The notes under the pieces were generated by a model, which was not told where the DNA came from, ran no database searches, and saw only the letters and a list, made by a program, of their open reading frames with translations. Positions 58,570-62,785 of a DNA stretch of 64,000 nt are shown here, one piece after another. Each line of letters opens with the position of its first letter. The stretch's first letter is position 1. Origin of the DNA: Henriciella sp. (GTDB taxonomy: Bacteria; Pseudomonadota; Alphaproteobacteria; Caulobacterales; Hyphomonadaceae); assembly GCA_013213825.1 (NCBI GenBank), contig JABSQA010000001.1, positions 33,017-97,016 on the forward strand, in the 5' to 3' direction. Position numbers and translations under genes: made by a program.

Positions 58570-58613
58570 AGAAAAAACTTGCCGAGTGGTGTTGTTGAAC
58601 TATTCTGCAACTC

Positions 58614-58706
58614 AGGCGAGTGTTCCTCCCATATGATGCTCGCCTAATTCACGCACACTAACCCAGACGTGTGAGCGCCCGAATGTCCCCAACATTCGGG
58701 CGCGTT
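58614..58706 (+). ncRNA. Candidate trans-acting sRNA with anti-SD loop (alpha-r8/suhB/MmgR/GsrN-like)
   Basis: TTGCCG-N16-TATTCT promoter; three consecutive hairpins; first loop GUUCCUCCCA; last is a perfect 12-bp stem. Confidence 0.55.
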
Positions 58707-58739: not shown

Positions 58740-59555
58740 ATGACTTCAAATCACCTCAGACTCGTAAGTTGGAATATCAATTCGATCCGGCTTCGTTTGC
58801 CCAATGTCGAAGCCTTTGTGGCAGCGGAAAATCCGGACATCCTGTGTTTTCAGGAAATCAAATGCCAAACAGCCGAATTTCCGGAAAAGGCGTTTAAACA
58901 AATGGGGTTCCCGCACCTGAGTGTGCATGGCCAAAAAGGTGGGCATCATGGCGTGGCGATCGCCAGCAGGAGCCCGATTGAAACCTTAGAAACGCCGAAG
59001 CTTTGCCGAGAAGGGCATGCAAGGGTGAATGCGATACGGGTGAAGGGCCTTGAGTTGCACAATATTTATCTCCCCGCAGGTGGAGATACACCCGATCCTG
59101 ATGAGAATCCGAAATTTGCCCATAAGCTTGATTTCGTGAAACGCCTTGGACGGCACTATGGCAAATTCGCTAGAGACGGCGTGCCACGCGTGCTGGTCGG
59201 GGATCTCAACATCGCCCCTCATCCGAATGATGTCTGGTCCCACAAACAGCTTCTGAAGATTGTCTCACACACGCCGATTGAGACCGAGTGGCTTGAAAAG
59301 GCTCGAAAAAAAGGTGGATTCACGGATATTGCGCGTCACGTACACGATGATGATCAGAGGCTTTATTCATGGTGGAGCTATCGCGCCAGGGACTGGGCCG
59401 CTTCAAACAAGGGGCGTCGGCTCGATCATATCTGGACGACCGAAGCCGCCACGGCGCTCACCGATCTTGAGAGCTATCAGGTGCATTTAGCCTGGCGCGG
59501 CGGGTGGAAACCATCCGACCATGCGCCGATTAGTATTGATATCGCAGCGCCTTAA
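58740..59555 (+). CDS. xth: Exodeoxyribonuclease III (Xth)
   Basis: SWNINSIR, FQEIK, NIYLPAG, GDLNIAP, WWSYR, RRLDHIW, SDHAPI. Confidence 0.95.
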   Translation: MTSNHLRLVSWNINSIRLRLPNVEAFVAAENPDILCFQEIKCQTAEFPEKAFKQMGFPHLSVHGQKGGHHGVAIASRSPIETLETPKLCREGHARVNAIRVKGLELHNIYLPAGGDTPDPDENPKFAHKLDFVKRLGRHYGKFARDGVPRVLVGDLNIAPHPNDVWSHKQLLKIVSHTPIETEWLEKARKKGGFTDIARHVHDDDQRLYSWWSYRARDWAASNKGRRLDHIWTTEAATALTDLESYQVHLAWRGGWKPSDHAPISIDIAAP

Positions 59556-60340
59556 GCGACCGCGCGCACATCGCGCGCGTCTGATGCGTTCAATCGGTTC
59601 ATCATATCGCCCACGGTGACAATTTCGGCACCGAAGCACGCGATAGCGTCTAGCAAATGCTCATAATCTTGTGGGGTGACCCCCCATGGTGACGGTGTCT
59701 CGCGGACATCATGCGTGAAGATGATAAGCCAACCGTCCTGATGCTTGAGCGTTTCTAACTCTTCAATTGCACGCGCGGTTCCGCCCTCATTATCCTGCAA
59801 CCCGCAGGCTTTGAGCATATTGAGGTCAATCGACCCGCGATTGGTTCCCGGTTTCACGCCACGTAGGGCCAGTCCAGTCTGGCTCATAACGCGCTTCGCA
59901 GCCAAATCGACGGCCCCAAAGGGGAAGGCGAATGACGATACCTCGGAAATCCCGTTTGCAGCTAAGAAAGCCGCACTTTTGCGCACTTGCGCGTGCAATT
60001 CCTTAGCGCTGGCTGTGCTGCAATCAATATGATCAAATGTATGACAGCCAAAATCATGTCCCTTGCGGCGTAGCGCGTACAAGTCTTCAGACGTGAACAT
60101 TTGTCCGTACTCAGGCTCTGTTTCGCCCATAAAACCACCCGCCACATACCAAGTCGCGCGCCAATCGCGGCGTTCAATCATTGGCGCGGCGATCCGCGCC
60201 GCGGATTGTGGAAAATCGTCAAAGCAAAGGCTAACATAGCGTCCAGCCGGCAGGGTTACGGCGCGTTTGTCAAAAATCTCGCAGAGAATTTTATCAATTG
60301 CCCTGTCAATCTTCCGAGAAAGGTAACCAAGATCGGCCAT
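59552..60340 (-). CDS. hfsH: Polysaccharide deacetylase, HfsH-like
   Basis: CFDDFP, GCHTFDH, FAFPFG, IFTHDV; resembles Caulobacter HfsH as recalled. Confidence 0.7.
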   Translation of the reverse strand: MADLGYLSRKIDRAIDKILCEIFDKRAVTLPAGRYVSLCFDDFPQSAARIAAPMIERRDWRATWYVAGGFMGETEPEYGQMFTSEDLYALRRKGHDFGCHTFDHIDCSTASAKELHAQVRKSAAFLAANGISEVSSFAFPFGAVDLAAKRVMSQTGLALRGVKPGTNRGSIDLNMLKACGLQDNEGGTARAIEELETLKHQDGWLIIFTHDVRETPSPWGVTPQDYEHLLDAIACFGAEIVTVGDMMNRLNASDARDVRAVA

Positions 60341-60385
60341 AACGCATCCAAAGGTGGCGAAAACGTACGGGAAACTCACTGCAAG

Positions 60386-61462
60386 ATGCGTGCCAGAGTT
60401 CAGTGTCTAAATTTCTCCGACTTAACCAAGACGGATCGCGCTGTATGGAGCAATTTCCAAGCGTCAGACCCAAGCCTGGCCAGCCCGTATTTTTCGTATA
60501 GCTACGCTGAAGCCGTTGAGGCCGTTCGCCCCGGCATTAAAGTGCTGCGATTTTATGAGCATGAGCGCCCGGCGGCGTACTGGCCGTTCCGAAAAGGGCC
60601 GTTCGGCACAGCGCGCCCGATCGCGGGCTCGATGGACGATTTGCACGGGATCATCGCGCATCCCACGGTACGGCTAGATCTGACCCATCCAGATGTGCGC
60701 AGAAATATGGGCGGATTTGCGTTTTCGGCGCTGCCATATCAGCAGCGTCGTCATGGACTTGAGGGGCAATTTGGTGATGGCAATCAGGTTATGGATCTGG
60801 ACGCGGGGTTTGACGCCTGGCGCGCGGCGCGATCCGCTGAGAGCTCCAATTTCCGGCGCGAGTGGCGCAAAGCAGAGAAGCTCCTTTCCACACCCTCCAC
60901 CACGCTCCGCCATGATGTGGTTGACCCTGTAAGTTTCGAACGTTTGATTGCGCTGAAGCGCGACGCTTATGCGCAAGCGGGCCATTTTGATCTGTTTCGC
61001 CTGGCCTGGTCGCGCGCTCTGCTACAGCAATTGCTCGAAAGCGGAGACGATCAAGCGCGTGGCATATTATCGACCTTGAGCATTGACGGCGACGTTGCTG
61101 CGATCTGTTACTGCATGCGCTCAGCGTCGGTTTTGCATTATTGGTTCCCGGCCTATGAGGCTAAATATGCAAAGCAAAAACCTGGTCTTGCTTTGCTCTT
61201 CTCATTGGCCAAGTGGGCGGCTTTAGAGGGGGTGTCAGAGCTCCATCTCGGCCTTGGAGATGTCCAATATAAAAGACAAATGGCCAGTTGGATGATGCCA
61301 GTCCGCGCGGGCGCCTTGGCTTTGTCGCCGATCCAGTCTTACGCCACGGGATTCACCGCTTGGGGGCATCGAATCGAAAATAGAAACAAGCTATCGGCGG
61401 TGCCAGCAAAATTTGCCCGAAAGTATGAGAGAATGGCACTTTCGGGCAGTTGGCGCGCCTAA
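60386..61462 (+). CDS. hfsK: GNAT/CelD-like acyltransferase, HfsK-like
   Basis: SPYFSYSY, HYWFPAY, KPGLALL, LHLGLGDVQYK; start moved to ATG 60386. Confidence 0.68.
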   Translation: MRARVQCLNFSDLTKTDRAVWSNFQASDPSLASPYFSYSYAEAVEAVRPGIKVLRFYEHERPAAYWPFRKGPFGTARPIAGSMDDLHGIIAHPTVRLDLTHPDVRRNMGGFAFSALPYQQRRHGLEGQFGDGNQVMDLDAGFDAWRAARSAESSNFRREWRKAEKLLSTPSTTLRHDVVDPVSFERLIALKRDAYAQAGHFDLFRLAWSRALLQQLLESGDDQARGILSTLSIDGDVAAICYCMRSASVLHYWFPAYEAKYAKQKPGLALLFSLAKWAALEGVSELHLGLGDVQYKRQMASWMMPVRAGALALSPIQSYATGFTAWGHRIENRNKLSAVPAKFARKYERMALSGSWRA

Positions 61463-61598
61463 AACTTAAGCATCGCTGCCTGTCATGAAAGATTCACCGG
61501 CGCGGGGACCGCTGAACCCCCAATAAAAGCGGCACGTCTTCATTTTCGCATATCTGCTTTTCCGAAAATTCCTTGTTCGGCCCGTGGTTTGCGCGAAG

Positions 61599-61613
61599 TG
61601 TTGCGGTGCAACA
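61599..61613. promoter_or_regulatory. Palindrome TGTTGC-GGT-GCAACA (TGC-N3-GCA type operator)
   Basis: Perfect 6-bp inverted repeat 130 bp upstream of the first UrcA-family gene. Confidence 0.45.
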
Positions 61614-61742
61614 TAAAAGTGAAAGGGCTAAGTCCGAGATCTGGCCGGACATTAAGAGGGCTCAAAAAAATCGAACATGTGTTGCGGGAGGAGTTTCTGG
61701 TCGGTCTTCGGGCCGTCGCTAACTCGAAAAGGAACTCTTACA

Positions 61743-62060
61743 ATGCGTAAGACTGTTGCAACTCTAATCGCCGCGGCCGTTATGGTCGCTCCTTTTGCCC
61801 ACGCTCAGGGCACTCCAATCACAGTACAACTCACCTATGATTCAAGCCTTCTCAGCTCCGAATCCGGCGCTAAGGCGGTGTTGAAGTCGATTAAAAAGCA
61901 GGCCACCGAAGCCTGCTCGTACAAAAAGCCAGTTTTCGGCACGCCAAGTTTCGATCGCGCATGTCGCGATGCCTTGGTCGAACAAGCTATTAGCGAAATC
62001 CGCCTGGCAGCCTTGGAAGAGGGGCAAGCGACCACATATGTTTTTGCGTCGCTAGACTAA
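61743..62060 (+). CDS. UrcA family exported protein (paralog 1)
   Basis: Signal peptide; V-x-Y-D-x-x-L...GA...I...A...C...C pattern; AAGGA SD. Confidence 0.75.
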   Translation: MRKTVATLIAAAVMVAPFAHAQGTPITVQLTYDSSLLSSESGAKAVLKSIKKQATEACSYKKPVFGTPSFDRACRDALVEQAISEIRLAALEEGQATTYVFASLD

Positions 62061-62109
62061 AGGAAAACTGGCACGCTGCGGCGTGACAGGACGCATCTAG
62101 TTCAAATGG

Positions 62110-62143
62110 AAACGGGCGGAGAGAGAAGCTTTCCGCCCGTTTT
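62110..62143 (+). terminator. Intrinsic terminator after UrcA paralog 1
   Basis: AAACGGGCGGA/TCCGCCCGTTT stem plus T tract. Confidence 0.75.
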
Positions 62144-62390
62144 CTATTCGTCTTTGAATGAAGCGCTGCGTCGCACTCATGCCAAAACGCCTAAGTAAAA
62201 AAGTCGAAAAATAATTACTAAATGATTTGCTTATCATTCAGTATTCTGTTAGAGGGATGTTGTGAAGCGGAGAAGAACGCTCAGTCTCGGACGAGTTTCG
62301 AGCTGCGATAAGAGCGAAAGAAAACTCTGCTTCACGCATCGTCCTCCCTGTCGGCCGTTTGGCCGTCGTTGCAATATATGGAATGTTCCA

Positions 62391-62732
62391 ATGCATAAGA
62401 GTCTTGCCTCTCTCCTTGCTGTAGCTGCGTTTGCAACCCCTTTCGCTCAAGCTGAAACCAAAACTGTCACGGTTGATTTGACCTATGATCGAGCGCTCCT
62501 TGAGACCGAATCTGGTGTCGAAATTGTTCTGGCGTCACTCGAAGCACAAGCGATTGAAGCCTGTACATATGCTTCACCGCTCGTCGGCACACCGAAGCAT
62601 GACAAAACGTGCCGCGATGAGATTCTCGAGAGCGCGATTGCTGAAATTCGCCGCGTTTCTTATGAAGAGGGCACAGTGGCGACATCGGTGTTCGCAAGCC
62701 TCGAAACGCCAATTGCCGTGCCTGCTCAATAA
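62391..62732 (+). CDS. UrcA family exported protein (paralog 2)
   Basis: Same pattern and two Cys as paralog 1; shared LTYD, EAC, VFASL; start ATG 62391. Confidence 0.75.
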   Translation: MHKSLASLLAVAAFATPFAQAETKTVTVDLTYDRALLETESGVEIVLASLEAQAIEACTYASPLVGTPKHDKTCRDEILESAIAEIRRVSYEEGTVATSVFASLETPIAVPAQ

Positions 62733-62750: not shown

Positions 62751-62785
62751 AAAAAAGGGCGGTGATCTTATGATCGCCGCCCTTT
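62751..62785. terminator. Bidirectional intrinsic terminator
   Basis: AAAGGGCGGTGATC-TTAT-GATCGCCGCCCTTT, 14-bp stem with one GU pair. Confidence 0.8.

Follow-up and report, generated by a model that had tools for sequence, protein, structure and literature searches.

The present analysis concerns the leaders of two tandem UrcA-family genes, A and B, that are located in a 64,000-nt stretch of contig JABSQA010000001.1 of Henriciella sp. (the window), a metagenome-assembled alphaproteobacterium with a genome of 3.6 Mb (54.8% G+C, 94% complete). The leader is a previously uncatalogued, family-restricted structured 5′ RNA that exists as an A type and a derived B type, and it represents a new motif within a known kind of element, the structured cis-regulatory leaders. 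The features that characterize a structured cis-regulatory 5′ leader RNA were all found, i.e., covariation, a location that extends from the predicted promoter to the start codon, and a tie to one gene family. We regard it as highly probable that the structured RNA motif is real and functional. A first-pass annotation, made from the letters of the window alone, had proposed a conserved cis-regulatory RNA or protein-binding element in both leaders. That a conserved cis-element is present in the 5′ leader was borne out, and it is best read as RNA, given the compensatory changes in five helices and the presence of G-U pairs only on the gene strand. The features of the locus are collected in Table 1; two calibrated covariance models were used throughout, R1, which was built from A-type leaders only, and R2, a model of the core.

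Table 1. Positions in the window of the leaders, their predicted helices and the surrounding features
Feature	Position	Strand	Description
RusT-like small RNA (candidate)	58579-58706	+	Before xth, ~3 kb upstream of the leader; first hairpin loop GUUCCUCCCAUA
Genus-conserved box CATTTTCGCATATCTGCnnTTCCnAAA	61541-61572	+	Immediately upstream of the −35 of A; core GCAT-N2-CWGC; in most same-genus A loci; outside the RNA
Promoter of A (predicted)	61573-61601	+	−35 TTGTTC (61573-78), 17-nt spacer of variable sequence, −10 AAGTGT (61596-61601; family consensus AATTGT)
A-type leader RNA	61608-61742	+	R1 match 61608-61744, 139 bits, E 3e-30; RNAalifold structure
5′ domain of A	61608-61685	+	P0, P1a, P1b and A-rich linker
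P0 of A	61608-13 with 61680-85	+	GCAACA with UGUUGC; leader bases 1-6 with the six that directly precede GGGAGG
P1a of A	61625-29 with 61659-63	+	GGGCU with GGCUC
P1b of A	61632-38 with 61645-50	+	GUCCG.G with CCGGAC
A-rich linker of A	61664-79	+	
Invariant box GCGGGAGGAGUUUCUG	61684-61699	+	Junction and P2 5′ arm (GGAGUU, 61690-95); Shine-Dalgarno-like
P3 hairpin of A	61700-61717	+	Arms 61700-06 and 61711-17; G.CGGUC-UUCG-GGCCG.C
Near-invariant CGCUAACUC(G)	61717-61733	+	P2 3′ arm AACUCG (61721-26), then Shine-Dalgarno AAGGA (61729-33)
Gene A	61743-62060	+	UrcA-family periplasmic protein, 105 amino acids, signal peptide; TIGR04433, 39.6 bits
Intrinsic terminator after gene A	62108-62144	+	16-bp stem followed by a T run
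Promoter of B (predicted)	62227-62255	+	−35 TTGCTT (62227-32), 17-nt conserved spacer ATyrTTCAGTrTTCTGy, −10 TAGAGG (62250-55; TAnnnn in orthologs)
B-type leader RNA	62262-62390	+	R1 match 62262-62393, 36.4 bits, E 2e-6
P0 of B	62262-72 with 62325-35	+	GUGAAGCGGAG with CUCUGCUUCAC
P1a of B	62278-82 with 62312-16	+	
P1b of B	62285-91 with 62298-303	+	
CCUCCC tract of B	62343-62348	+	Occupies the place of GGGAGG in A; exact complement; invariant in 7 B leaders
P3 of B	62350-56 with 62361-67	+	
UGGAAUGUUCCA mini-hairpin of B	62379-62390	+	Holds the weak Shine-Dalgarno, abuts the AUG; read by eye
Gene B	62391-62732	+	UrcA-family paralog, 113 amino acids; TIGR04433, 35.6 bits
Intrinsic terminator after gene B	62754-62785	+	

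The A-type leader is predicted to fold into five covarying helices

The region from the conserved GCAGCA box to the ATG was aligned with MAFFT for 12 A leaders, and RNAalifold predicts five helices in this alignment (P0, P1a, P1b, P2 and P3). The box GCGGGAGGAGUUUC precedes the P3 hairpin, which is placed ~25 nt before the AUG, and the GGAGUU of this box pairs with AACUCU to form P2, 2-4 nt 5′ of the Shine-Dalgarno sequence. Compensatory changes were detected at 10 of the 29 pairs, and 95.4% of the cells were paired, versus 29-45% when the 3′ partners were slid by 1-3 columns; the covariation of the alignment was reached in none of 500 column shuffles. When 31 leaders were aligned to the model, 25 of the 29 pairs were compensatory. 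The covarying pairs of the 5′ domain included GCAGCAC/GUGCUGC, CGCAACG/CGUUGCG, GAGCU/AGCUC, UAGCC/GGCUA and CGGUC/GGCCG. The core was also analyzed in a MAFFT alignment of 40 distinct leaders from four genera, in which 8 of the 13 pairs of P2 and P3 showed compensatory changes and 91.5% of the cells were paired (0/500 shuffles). All six helix pairs of P3 were compensatory in these leaders, with stems as different as CGGUC/GACCG, CGAUC/GAUCG, CUGGG/CCCAG, GUUGGC/GCCAAC and CCGGAC/GUCCGG, and the stem pairs CGACC/GGUCG and CUGG/CCAG were also observed within the genus. The first-pass remark that the hairpin keeps its stem while its loop differs was therefore correct, and it can be generalized, because the sequence of P3 is wholly replaced and yet remains paired among the 40 leaders.

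Within the genus, the identity of the leader core (76%) is to be compared with that of the third codon positions of gene A (45%) and with that of codon positions 1 and 2 (79%). These values show that purifying selection acts on the leader with roughly the same strength as on codon positions 1 and 2. G-U pairs were frequent in the helices (GU in 6 of 12 leaders at one P0 pair, UG in 6 of 12 in P3 and GU in 10 of 12 in P2). Such pairs would be A-C on the other strand, and therefore the functional strand is the gene strand, which speaks against a double-stranded DNA site.

In the relatives, the core of the A leader reads UGYUGCGGGAGGAGUUUCUG, the hairpin, CGCUAACUCU, a few bases, AAGGA, a few bases, and AUG. 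Among the 40 leaders, GCGGG, GG and UU of the box are invariant and its remaining positions are at least 90% identical; almost all positions of GCGGGAGGAGUUUC and CGCUAACUC are either invariant or show an identity of 90% or more, whereas P3 and P1 vary. The same was observed in 20 leaders from other genera, in which the P1 arms differ in length by over 50 nt and the P3 sequences are entirely different, with the flanks YGCGGGAGGAGUUUCY and CGCUAACUCUGAAGG nearly unchanged. The box is conserved beyond the demands of its helix. It is mostly paired in the prediction (median unpaired probability of 0.19), and half of its Shine-Dalgarno-like tract GGGAGGAG is taken up by P2. The apex region of the otherwise variable P1 arm retains an unpaired (U)GGCC(A) in most leaders of all the genera inspected (UGGCCG at 61641-61646 of the window; L071-L090). 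As UGGCCA is self-complementary, it might mediate a loop-loop or dimer contact; a covarying partner for it was not detected.

Several other readings of the leader were discarded. An upstream GUUGC-N3-GCAAC could form a 5′ hairpin in place of P0, but two clades without the upstream copy still keep P0. The complementarity required for pseudoknots between UUUCY and the Shine-Dalgarno sequence, or between UGGCC and the P3 3′ arm, is lost across genera, as seen by inspection. An upstream open reading frame or leader peptide was rejected because no start is conserved after GGAGG (CUG, CUU, CAU, CUA and UUG were found, at varying offsets), and a leader peptide that begins at the AUG in GCAGCAUGA because the window's own leader has AUA and insertions or deletions in P1 break any frame. 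The ATG at 61677, from which gene A could have an N-terminal extension, is not conserved.

The B-type leader keeps the scaffold and carries a different module

The A-only model R1 recovers each of the A leaders and also aligns all the B leaders from end to end, with lower but significant scores. Seven B leaders were also analyzed alone (MAFFT and RNAalifold, independently of the A model), which yielded P0, P1a, P1b and P3, but no P2, with compensatory changes at 13 of the 28 pairs. Where the A leader has GCGGGAGGAGUUU, the seven B leaders have an invariant (U)CCUCCCAG, and the predictions leave the CCUCCC tract unpaired (median unpaired probability of 0.94). Variants of the mini-hairpin that abuts the AUG (UGGAA..UUCCA, UGGAU..AUCCA and UUGG..CCAA) were found in five of the seven B leaders; RNAalifold does not predict it. 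On the strength of these alignments, the two leaders are homologous, and B is a derived type in which one module has been replaced.

The four elements listed in the first-pass annotation are all present at the positions it gives, and its hairpin, GTCGGyC-N4-GGCCGTCG, is found exactly at 61700-61718 and 62350-62368. With up to two mismatches allowed, this pattern has only those two matches in the window (0.42 expected; 6 of 100 shuffles gave at least two), which are also the sole exact copies in the 3.6-Mb genome. The two-copy match alone is weak evidence, and it is the comparative data that are decisive. As to the order of elements said to be shared by the two leaders, alignment to the A-built model confirmed the homology of GCTnAGTC, which is the 5′ side of P1a/P1b in both, of TAAGAG with its A run, which is the linker, P1a 3′ arm and A-rich junction in both, and of the hairpin, which is P3. 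CGGAC is not homologous, since it is the P1b 3′ arm in A (61645-61650) and the P1b 5′ arm and loop in B (62288), and its matching between the leaders is a coincidence. The hairpin and the listed parts are real, but the full element would span the region from the predicted transcript 5′ end to the start codon, and the most conserved part of the A type, GCGGGAGGAGUUUC...CGCUAACUCU around the hairpin, was not among the listed items. A dispersed or repetitive extragenic palindromic (REP)-like repeat was also considered and rejected, with only two exact genomic copies and three one-mismatch matches that are unrelated.

Predicted promoters place the transcript start at the first helix

In 28 of 38 leaders, those of other genera included, the model match begins where a promoter-like arrangement ends, which consists of TTGNNN, a 16-18-nt spacer whose sequence varies, a hexamer that loosely resembles a −10 and a further 5-8 nt. 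Its commonest form is TTGNNN, 17 nt, AATTGT (TAnnnn in B) and 6 nt, and the 5′ arm of P0 begins 6-7 nt after the conserved −10 hexamer. A simple consensus promoter scan misses the promoter of A. From this arrangement we infer that transcription begins 7 nt 3′ of the −10, near 61608 for A and 62262 for B, and that the promoters are of the sigma-70 type. Both starts would lie upstream of all the elements of the first-pass annotation.

The genus-conserved box upstream of the −35 of A is possibly an activator site or an upstream promoter (UP)-type site. In the promoter of B, the region 62215-62249 carries the highly conserved ACTAAATGATTTGCwTATyGTTCAGTrTTCTGy, which contains GTTC-N3-GTTC and looks like a putative operator that overlaps the promoter; its spacing is unlike that of the alphaproteobacterial LexA box, GTTC-N7-GTTC. 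Caulobacter urcA is transcriptionally controlled by UzcRS via CATTAC-N6-TTAA m_5 sites that are placed ~43-53 bp upstream of the start (PMC8963506). Although the downstream protein belongs to the same family, TIGR04433, the m_5 site is absent here, with no match at two or fewer mismatches in either promoter region (window count 23 versus 26 expected), the box at 61541-61572 is unlike the m_5 motif, and the RNA leader is absent outside this bacterial family.

The leader is tied to one UrcA-like gene subfamily in one bacterial family

Relatives were collected by a protein search of 60 genomes. Orthologs of A (58-80% identical) were found in ~20 same-genus genomes, and the tandem B copy is also present in eight further genomes of this search. 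The R1 search adds one more genome with B, and the A-B pair is present in at least nine species; the B type was found only beside an A type. R1 matched 31 of the 72 genomes of the genus and 39 of the 401 genomes of the order, all of the latter in the family of the window and distributed over four genera. Of the 262 genomes of the family, 103 were matched by R2, in 5 of the 18 genera and as a single copy in all but one genome; R2 matched none of 400 other genomes sampled across Alphaproteobacteria (308 genera). The 20 other-genus matches that were fetched all stand just before a reading frame, and 18 of these frames read through as UrcA-like proteins with a signal peptide (in L081 and L082 the start is misassigned), which are 30-43% identical to A where they could be aligned. 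These matches show a leader that appears strictly tied to one UrcA-like gene subfamily, and it is confined to this subfamily in one marine family, probably the Hyphomonadaceae (Henriciella, Hyphomonas and relatives).

The proposal that the element belongs to UrcA-family genes in general did not hold. In this genome, the element is missing from the three other UrcA paralogs, whose upstream regions are unrelated, and it is likewise missing from the UrcA leaders sampled outside the family. UrcA-family genes were present in 14 of 301 sampled alphaproteobacterial genomes, and the UrcA leaders from 12 of the 13 other such genomes gave no significant R2 match with the filters off (best E ~0.9). In 19 of those leaders, in which the start could be set, no excess of structure was observed at −62..−13 relative to shuffles or to the distal leader (mean z of −0.35, not significant). 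An element common to all UrcA genes was ruled out by its absence from the other paralogs and by the lack of match or of excess structure in the leaders of other families.

The suspicion that the element is undescribed was supported by a search of Rfam 15 (4227 models), in which no match was found inside 61608-61742 or 62262-62390 at E values up to 10. The only nearby matches were terminator look-alikes and a 13-nt SECIS_4 fragment (61600-61612; 15 bits, E 8) that touches the first 5 bases of the leader. No description of the leader was found in the literature searched.

A third, different type of conserved leader, located ~110 nt upstream of distant UrcA paralogs, was observed in six same-genus genomes. 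It has a promoter-like TGCTGCrTnTGCGAGA-N5-TGTTGTGCAC, the covarying hairpins CCUGCG-AAAA-CGCAGG and GCGGG-UAAUCU-CCCGC, and then a Shine-Dalgarno sequence. The spacer motif TGCTGCG-NN-TGCGAG is also found in six sister-genus A-type promoters, and this shared motif suggests a common transcriptional regulator for several UrcA subfamilies.

A RusT-like small RNA is a candidate partner of the box

In Caulobacter, the small RNA (sRNA) RusT is Hfq-dependent and uses a conserved C-containing loop to repress envelope-protein mRNAs (PMC11005374). The window contains a RusT-like sRNA whose loop can pair with GGGAGGAGU of the A leader over 7-9 bp. The A box is complementary to both the C-rich loop of the sRNA and the 3′ end of 16S rRNA. 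A RusT-like sRNA was detected by BLAST in 24 of 24 sister-genus genomes, and the 18 sister-genus sRNAs that could be extracted carry C-rich stretches complementary to the box (CCCCCC, and CCUCCC, CCUUCC, CUCCC or CCUCCUCC). In one clade, the second loop has changed from AACCUCCC to AAC/UUCCC along with a change of the box from GGGAGG to GGGGGG and of its P2 partner from AACUCU to AACUUCU; this coincidence amounts to a single evolutionary event and is suggestive only. The variant core, GCGGGGGGAGUU ... AACUUCU (three leaders, in three genomes), was observed only in the clade whose loop 2 is AAC/UUCCCUUG, not AACCUCCCUUA. Hfq could plausibly bind the A-rich single strand that both types, A and B, have at 10-20 nt 5′ of the box. 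In G009, the one other same-genus genome checked, the sRNA (C1:343226-343332) and the leader (C1:340188-340322) are also ~3 kb apart, and in the sister genus the sRNA and the UrcA leader lie on different contigs.

Two other trans-acting candidates were rejected. For a 'cuckoo'/CcsR-type sRNA with CCUCCUCCC loops, the eight genomic occurrences included no tandem-hairpin sRNA. A leader bound by CsrA/RsmA was set aside because PF02599 was not found in the 94%-complete genome, though it was found in control genomes.

The genes and their surroundings

Both proteins cover nearly the whole of the NCBIfam model TIGR04433 ('UrcA family protein', 'UrcA_uranyl'; model positions 3-90 in A and 5-89 in B, of 92), and both belong to the family at its curated cut-off of 25 bits. 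They are well diverged, as the first-pass annotation had noticed, with 50% identity. Protein A of the window has a C terminus 8 residues shorter than that of most orthologs (113 amino acids), and B has the longer form. An AlphaFold2 model of protein A (22 homologues) was of moderate confidence, with a predicted local distance difference test (pLDDT) score of 70.6, and showed a small alpha/beta domain following the signal peptide; a fold search of the PDB with this model gave no meaningful match (best E 2.3) and no hint of a signal that might be sensed. To our knowledge, no function has been assigned to UrcA or to any member of the TIGR04433 family. The promoter of Caulobacter urcA is employed as a biosensor, and urcA is the most strongly uranium-induced gene of that organism (PMC8963506).

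A strong terminator follows each of A and B, and therefore they form two separate transcription units. Upstream are a GCN5-related N-acetyltransferase (GNAT)-like Acetyltransf_6 gene of the FemAB/CelD type (60101-61462) and, on the opposite strand, a polysaccharide deacetylase gene (59552-60379), and downstream are sdhB and sdhA on the minus strand; no neighbour has an obvious link to the UrcA genes.

Discussion

We tentatively favour a model in which the leader is a cis-acting post-transcriptional control element with a C-rich RNA acting at the box/P2 module; that control goes through such a C-rich partner is the part of the model about which we are the more reserved, and we consider it possible at most. 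Each gene would be transcribed alone, its mRNA would carry a structured 5′ untranslated region (UTR) of 129-135 nt, and the element would act after transcription, on translation initiation and/or on mRNA lifetime. The 5′-terminal helix P0 might protect the message from 5′-end-dependent decay, and the P2 module, in which a pseudo-Shine-Dalgarno tract is held in a helix beside the real ribosome-binding site, would be the control point. The ~25 invariant nucleotides call for a sequence-specific partner, and the Shine-Dalgarno-like tract points to a C-rich RNA. Pairing of this RNA with the tract would compete with P2 and remodel the domain beside the ribosome-binding site. The likeliest partner would be the anti-Shine-Dalgarno loop of an Hfq-dependent sRNA, e.g., the RusT-like RNA 3 kb upstream. 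Alternatively, the partner could be the invariant 3′ end of 16S rRNA (−13.4 kcal/mol), so that the box would serve as a ribosome standby site. The B paralog would have kept the P0, P1 and P3 scaffold and exchanged the box for its exposed complement, CCUCCC, and therefore the paralogs should respond differently, possibly in opposite ways.

A number of observations weigh against this model. Both the transcription of the leader and its start site are read from sequence. P2 is paired in 96.7% of the cells and is near-invariant, and its support therefore comes chiefly from conservation; this helix is put to the test by no more than two changes at the level of clades (GGAUU/AAUUC in one and GGGGGGAGUU/AACUUCU in another). 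In the consensus fold the accessibility of the Shine-Dalgarno sequence and of the AUG is roughly one half, and no alternative pairing by which they would be masked, or a terminator formed, was found in the consensus or single-sequence folds; hence a simple sequestering switch is not evident. The pairing with the sRNA loop is not specific, as 8% of random 153-nt genomic windows pair at least equally well (−15.6 kcal/mol), and the duplex energies of cognate and non-cognate sRNA-leader pairs are equal. The sRNA seeds vary (CCUCCC, CCUUCC, CUCCC and CCUCCUCC), so that the box is more conserved than its supposed partners. Finally, urcA is not among the 23 RusT-responsive transcripts of Caulobacter (PMC11005374).

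The conservation pattern could be accommodated equally well by a leader that senses a signal directly. The leader could be an orphan riboswitch-like sensor, in which a small molecule or ion is bound by the invariant junction and internal-loop nucleotides (GGGAG, UUUCY and CGCU), and P2 is stabilised or opened as a result. Its conservation is indeed aptamer-like, with helices that covary freely and junction and internal-loop bases that are invariant over at least four genera, in addition to the conserved unpaired bases of the P1 arm (UGGCC) and of the A-rich junction. There is one copy per genome, strictly tied to one gene family whose function is possibly metal-related (TIGR04433; uranium-induced urcA, PMC8963506). 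However, no pairing was found that would mask the Shine-Dalgarno sequence or give a terminator, P3 is not followed by a U tract, and the P1 arm varies in length by more than 50 nt. The B leader keeps the scaffold and replaces the whole invariant module, which is hard to fit with a shared ligand pocket, no candidate ligand is known, and the most conserved tract is a plain Shine-Dalgarno-like purine run, the natural partner of a C-rich RNA. A sensor of this kind is consequently rather unlikely. The leader might instead act constitutively as an ompA-type stability and translation element, whose 5′-terminal helix and compact fold shield the strongly expressed mRNA of a secreted protein from RNase E and whose box is a standby site or enhancer, without any switching. 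This fits with the pairing by P0 of the first transcript nucleotides inferred in both A and B, which carries many compensatory changes, with a length of 129-135 nt like that of the ompA 5′ UTR, with a half-accessible ribosome-binding site and AUG, and with the complementarity of the box to the 16S 3′ end. Yet such an element needs structure, not ~25 invariant nucleotides, half of its GGAGG is buried in P2, and the B leader carries, equally conserved, the opposite anti-Shine-Dalgarno mimic, which is unable to recruit 30S subunits. We consider a purely constitutive role improbable.

The explanations that dispense with the RNA fare worse, and even taken together they retain very little probability. 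If the conserved blocks were operators of transcription factors downstream of the promoter, and the inverted repeats palindromic sites, one would understand why conserved DNA signals are found in the same regions (the promoter hexamers, the box at 61541-72 and the spacer of the B promoter); this is very improbable, because the stems change sequence fully with their complementarity kept, G-U pairs are frequent, P0 spans ~70 nt with variable spacing, and the UzcR m_5 motif is absent. That promoter and leader were merely copied along with the gene as a neutral remnant of the tandem duplication would agree with A and B being tandem paralogs and with the B type occurring only next to an A type. The duplication is old (50% protein identity, with the pair in at least nine species), the core is 76% identical although synonymous sites are near saturation (45%), and the leader persists even in those genera where protein identity is down to 30-43%, so that covariation and conservation already contradict this explanation, as do the compensatory changes that maintain the helices, and it is hardly credible. 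At the other end of the range, a circuit of opposite halves can be envisaged, in which the A leader displays the target GGGAGGAG and the B leader an exposed copy of the seed or anti-Shine-Dalgarno sequence, CCUCCC; the B mRNA would then be a decoy, a competitor or a molecule that pairs with A, and an iron- and envelope-responsive RusT-like sRNA would switch expression between the paralogs, or else the A module would be the aptamer of a new class of metal-signal riboswitch. We regard these more elaborate schemes as distinctly unlikely.

The favoured model, control by a C-rich RNA at the box/P2 module, has counterparts among known systems. The 5′ UTR of Escherichia coli ompA is an mRNA stabiliser of 133 nt with a 5′-terminal hairpin, which is bound by Hfq and is a target of the sRNA MicA. 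The likeness lies in a structured leader of ~130 nt on a monocistronic envelope-protein mRNA, the extreme 5′ end of which takes part in a helix; here also, Hfq could bind to unpaired A/U-rich stretches close to the ribosome-binding site, and an sRNA may plausibly exert post-transcriptional control. The two are related neither in sequence nor through Rfam, the 5′ end is closed by the long-range P0 here and by a local hairpin in ompA, and only the present leader has a Shine-Dalgarno-like invariant box 50 nt upstream of the AUG. The rpoS leader is of the anti-antisense type, in which a helix that sequesters the Shine-Dalgarno sequence is opened by DsrA, RprA and ArcZ. The present leader likewise has a helix beside the ribosome-binding site with a 5′ arm that is also complementary to an sRNA, so that pairing in trans would remodel it; P2, however, stops 2-4 nt before the Shine-Dalgarno sequence and excludes it. 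With RusT of Caulobacter crescentus (Vogt et al. 2024, PMC11005374), the common point is the RusT-like sRNA in the same window, whose C-rich loop is complementary to the box, and the difference is that the known RusT sites are predicted around the start region in reporter fragments, whereas the present box is ~50 nt upstream of the AUG.

The alphaproteobacterial cis-RNAs of Rfam (ROSE, SAM-II and the speF leader) and the orphan riboswitch candidates resemble the present element in being multi-helix leaders of narrow taxa, each defined by covariation and tied to one gene family. They differ from it in that ROSE/fourU elements pair the Shine-Dalgarno sequence with a U-rich strand, which the present leader does not, and no ligand or terminator-type platform was identified here. 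An RNA thermometer of the ROSE/fourU kind was rejected, since the Shine-Dalgarno sequence is outside all the conserved helices and there was no ROSE match; only a weak, non-universal mini-hairpin is found at the Shine-Dalgarno sequence in B and in some A leaders.

The leader is a clean addition to the orphan cis-regulatory RNA candidates of Alphaproteobacteria, with a seed alignment of at least 40 distinct sequences and two calibrated models. It offers a compact handle on a signal, in the form of ~25 invariant nucleotides, a natural module-loss variant in the paralog and a nearby candidate sRNA. Such a dedicated, covariation-backed leader indicates that, in one marine family, this gene too is under post-transcriptional control, and the leader probably controls the amount of UrcA-family periplasmic protein that is made.

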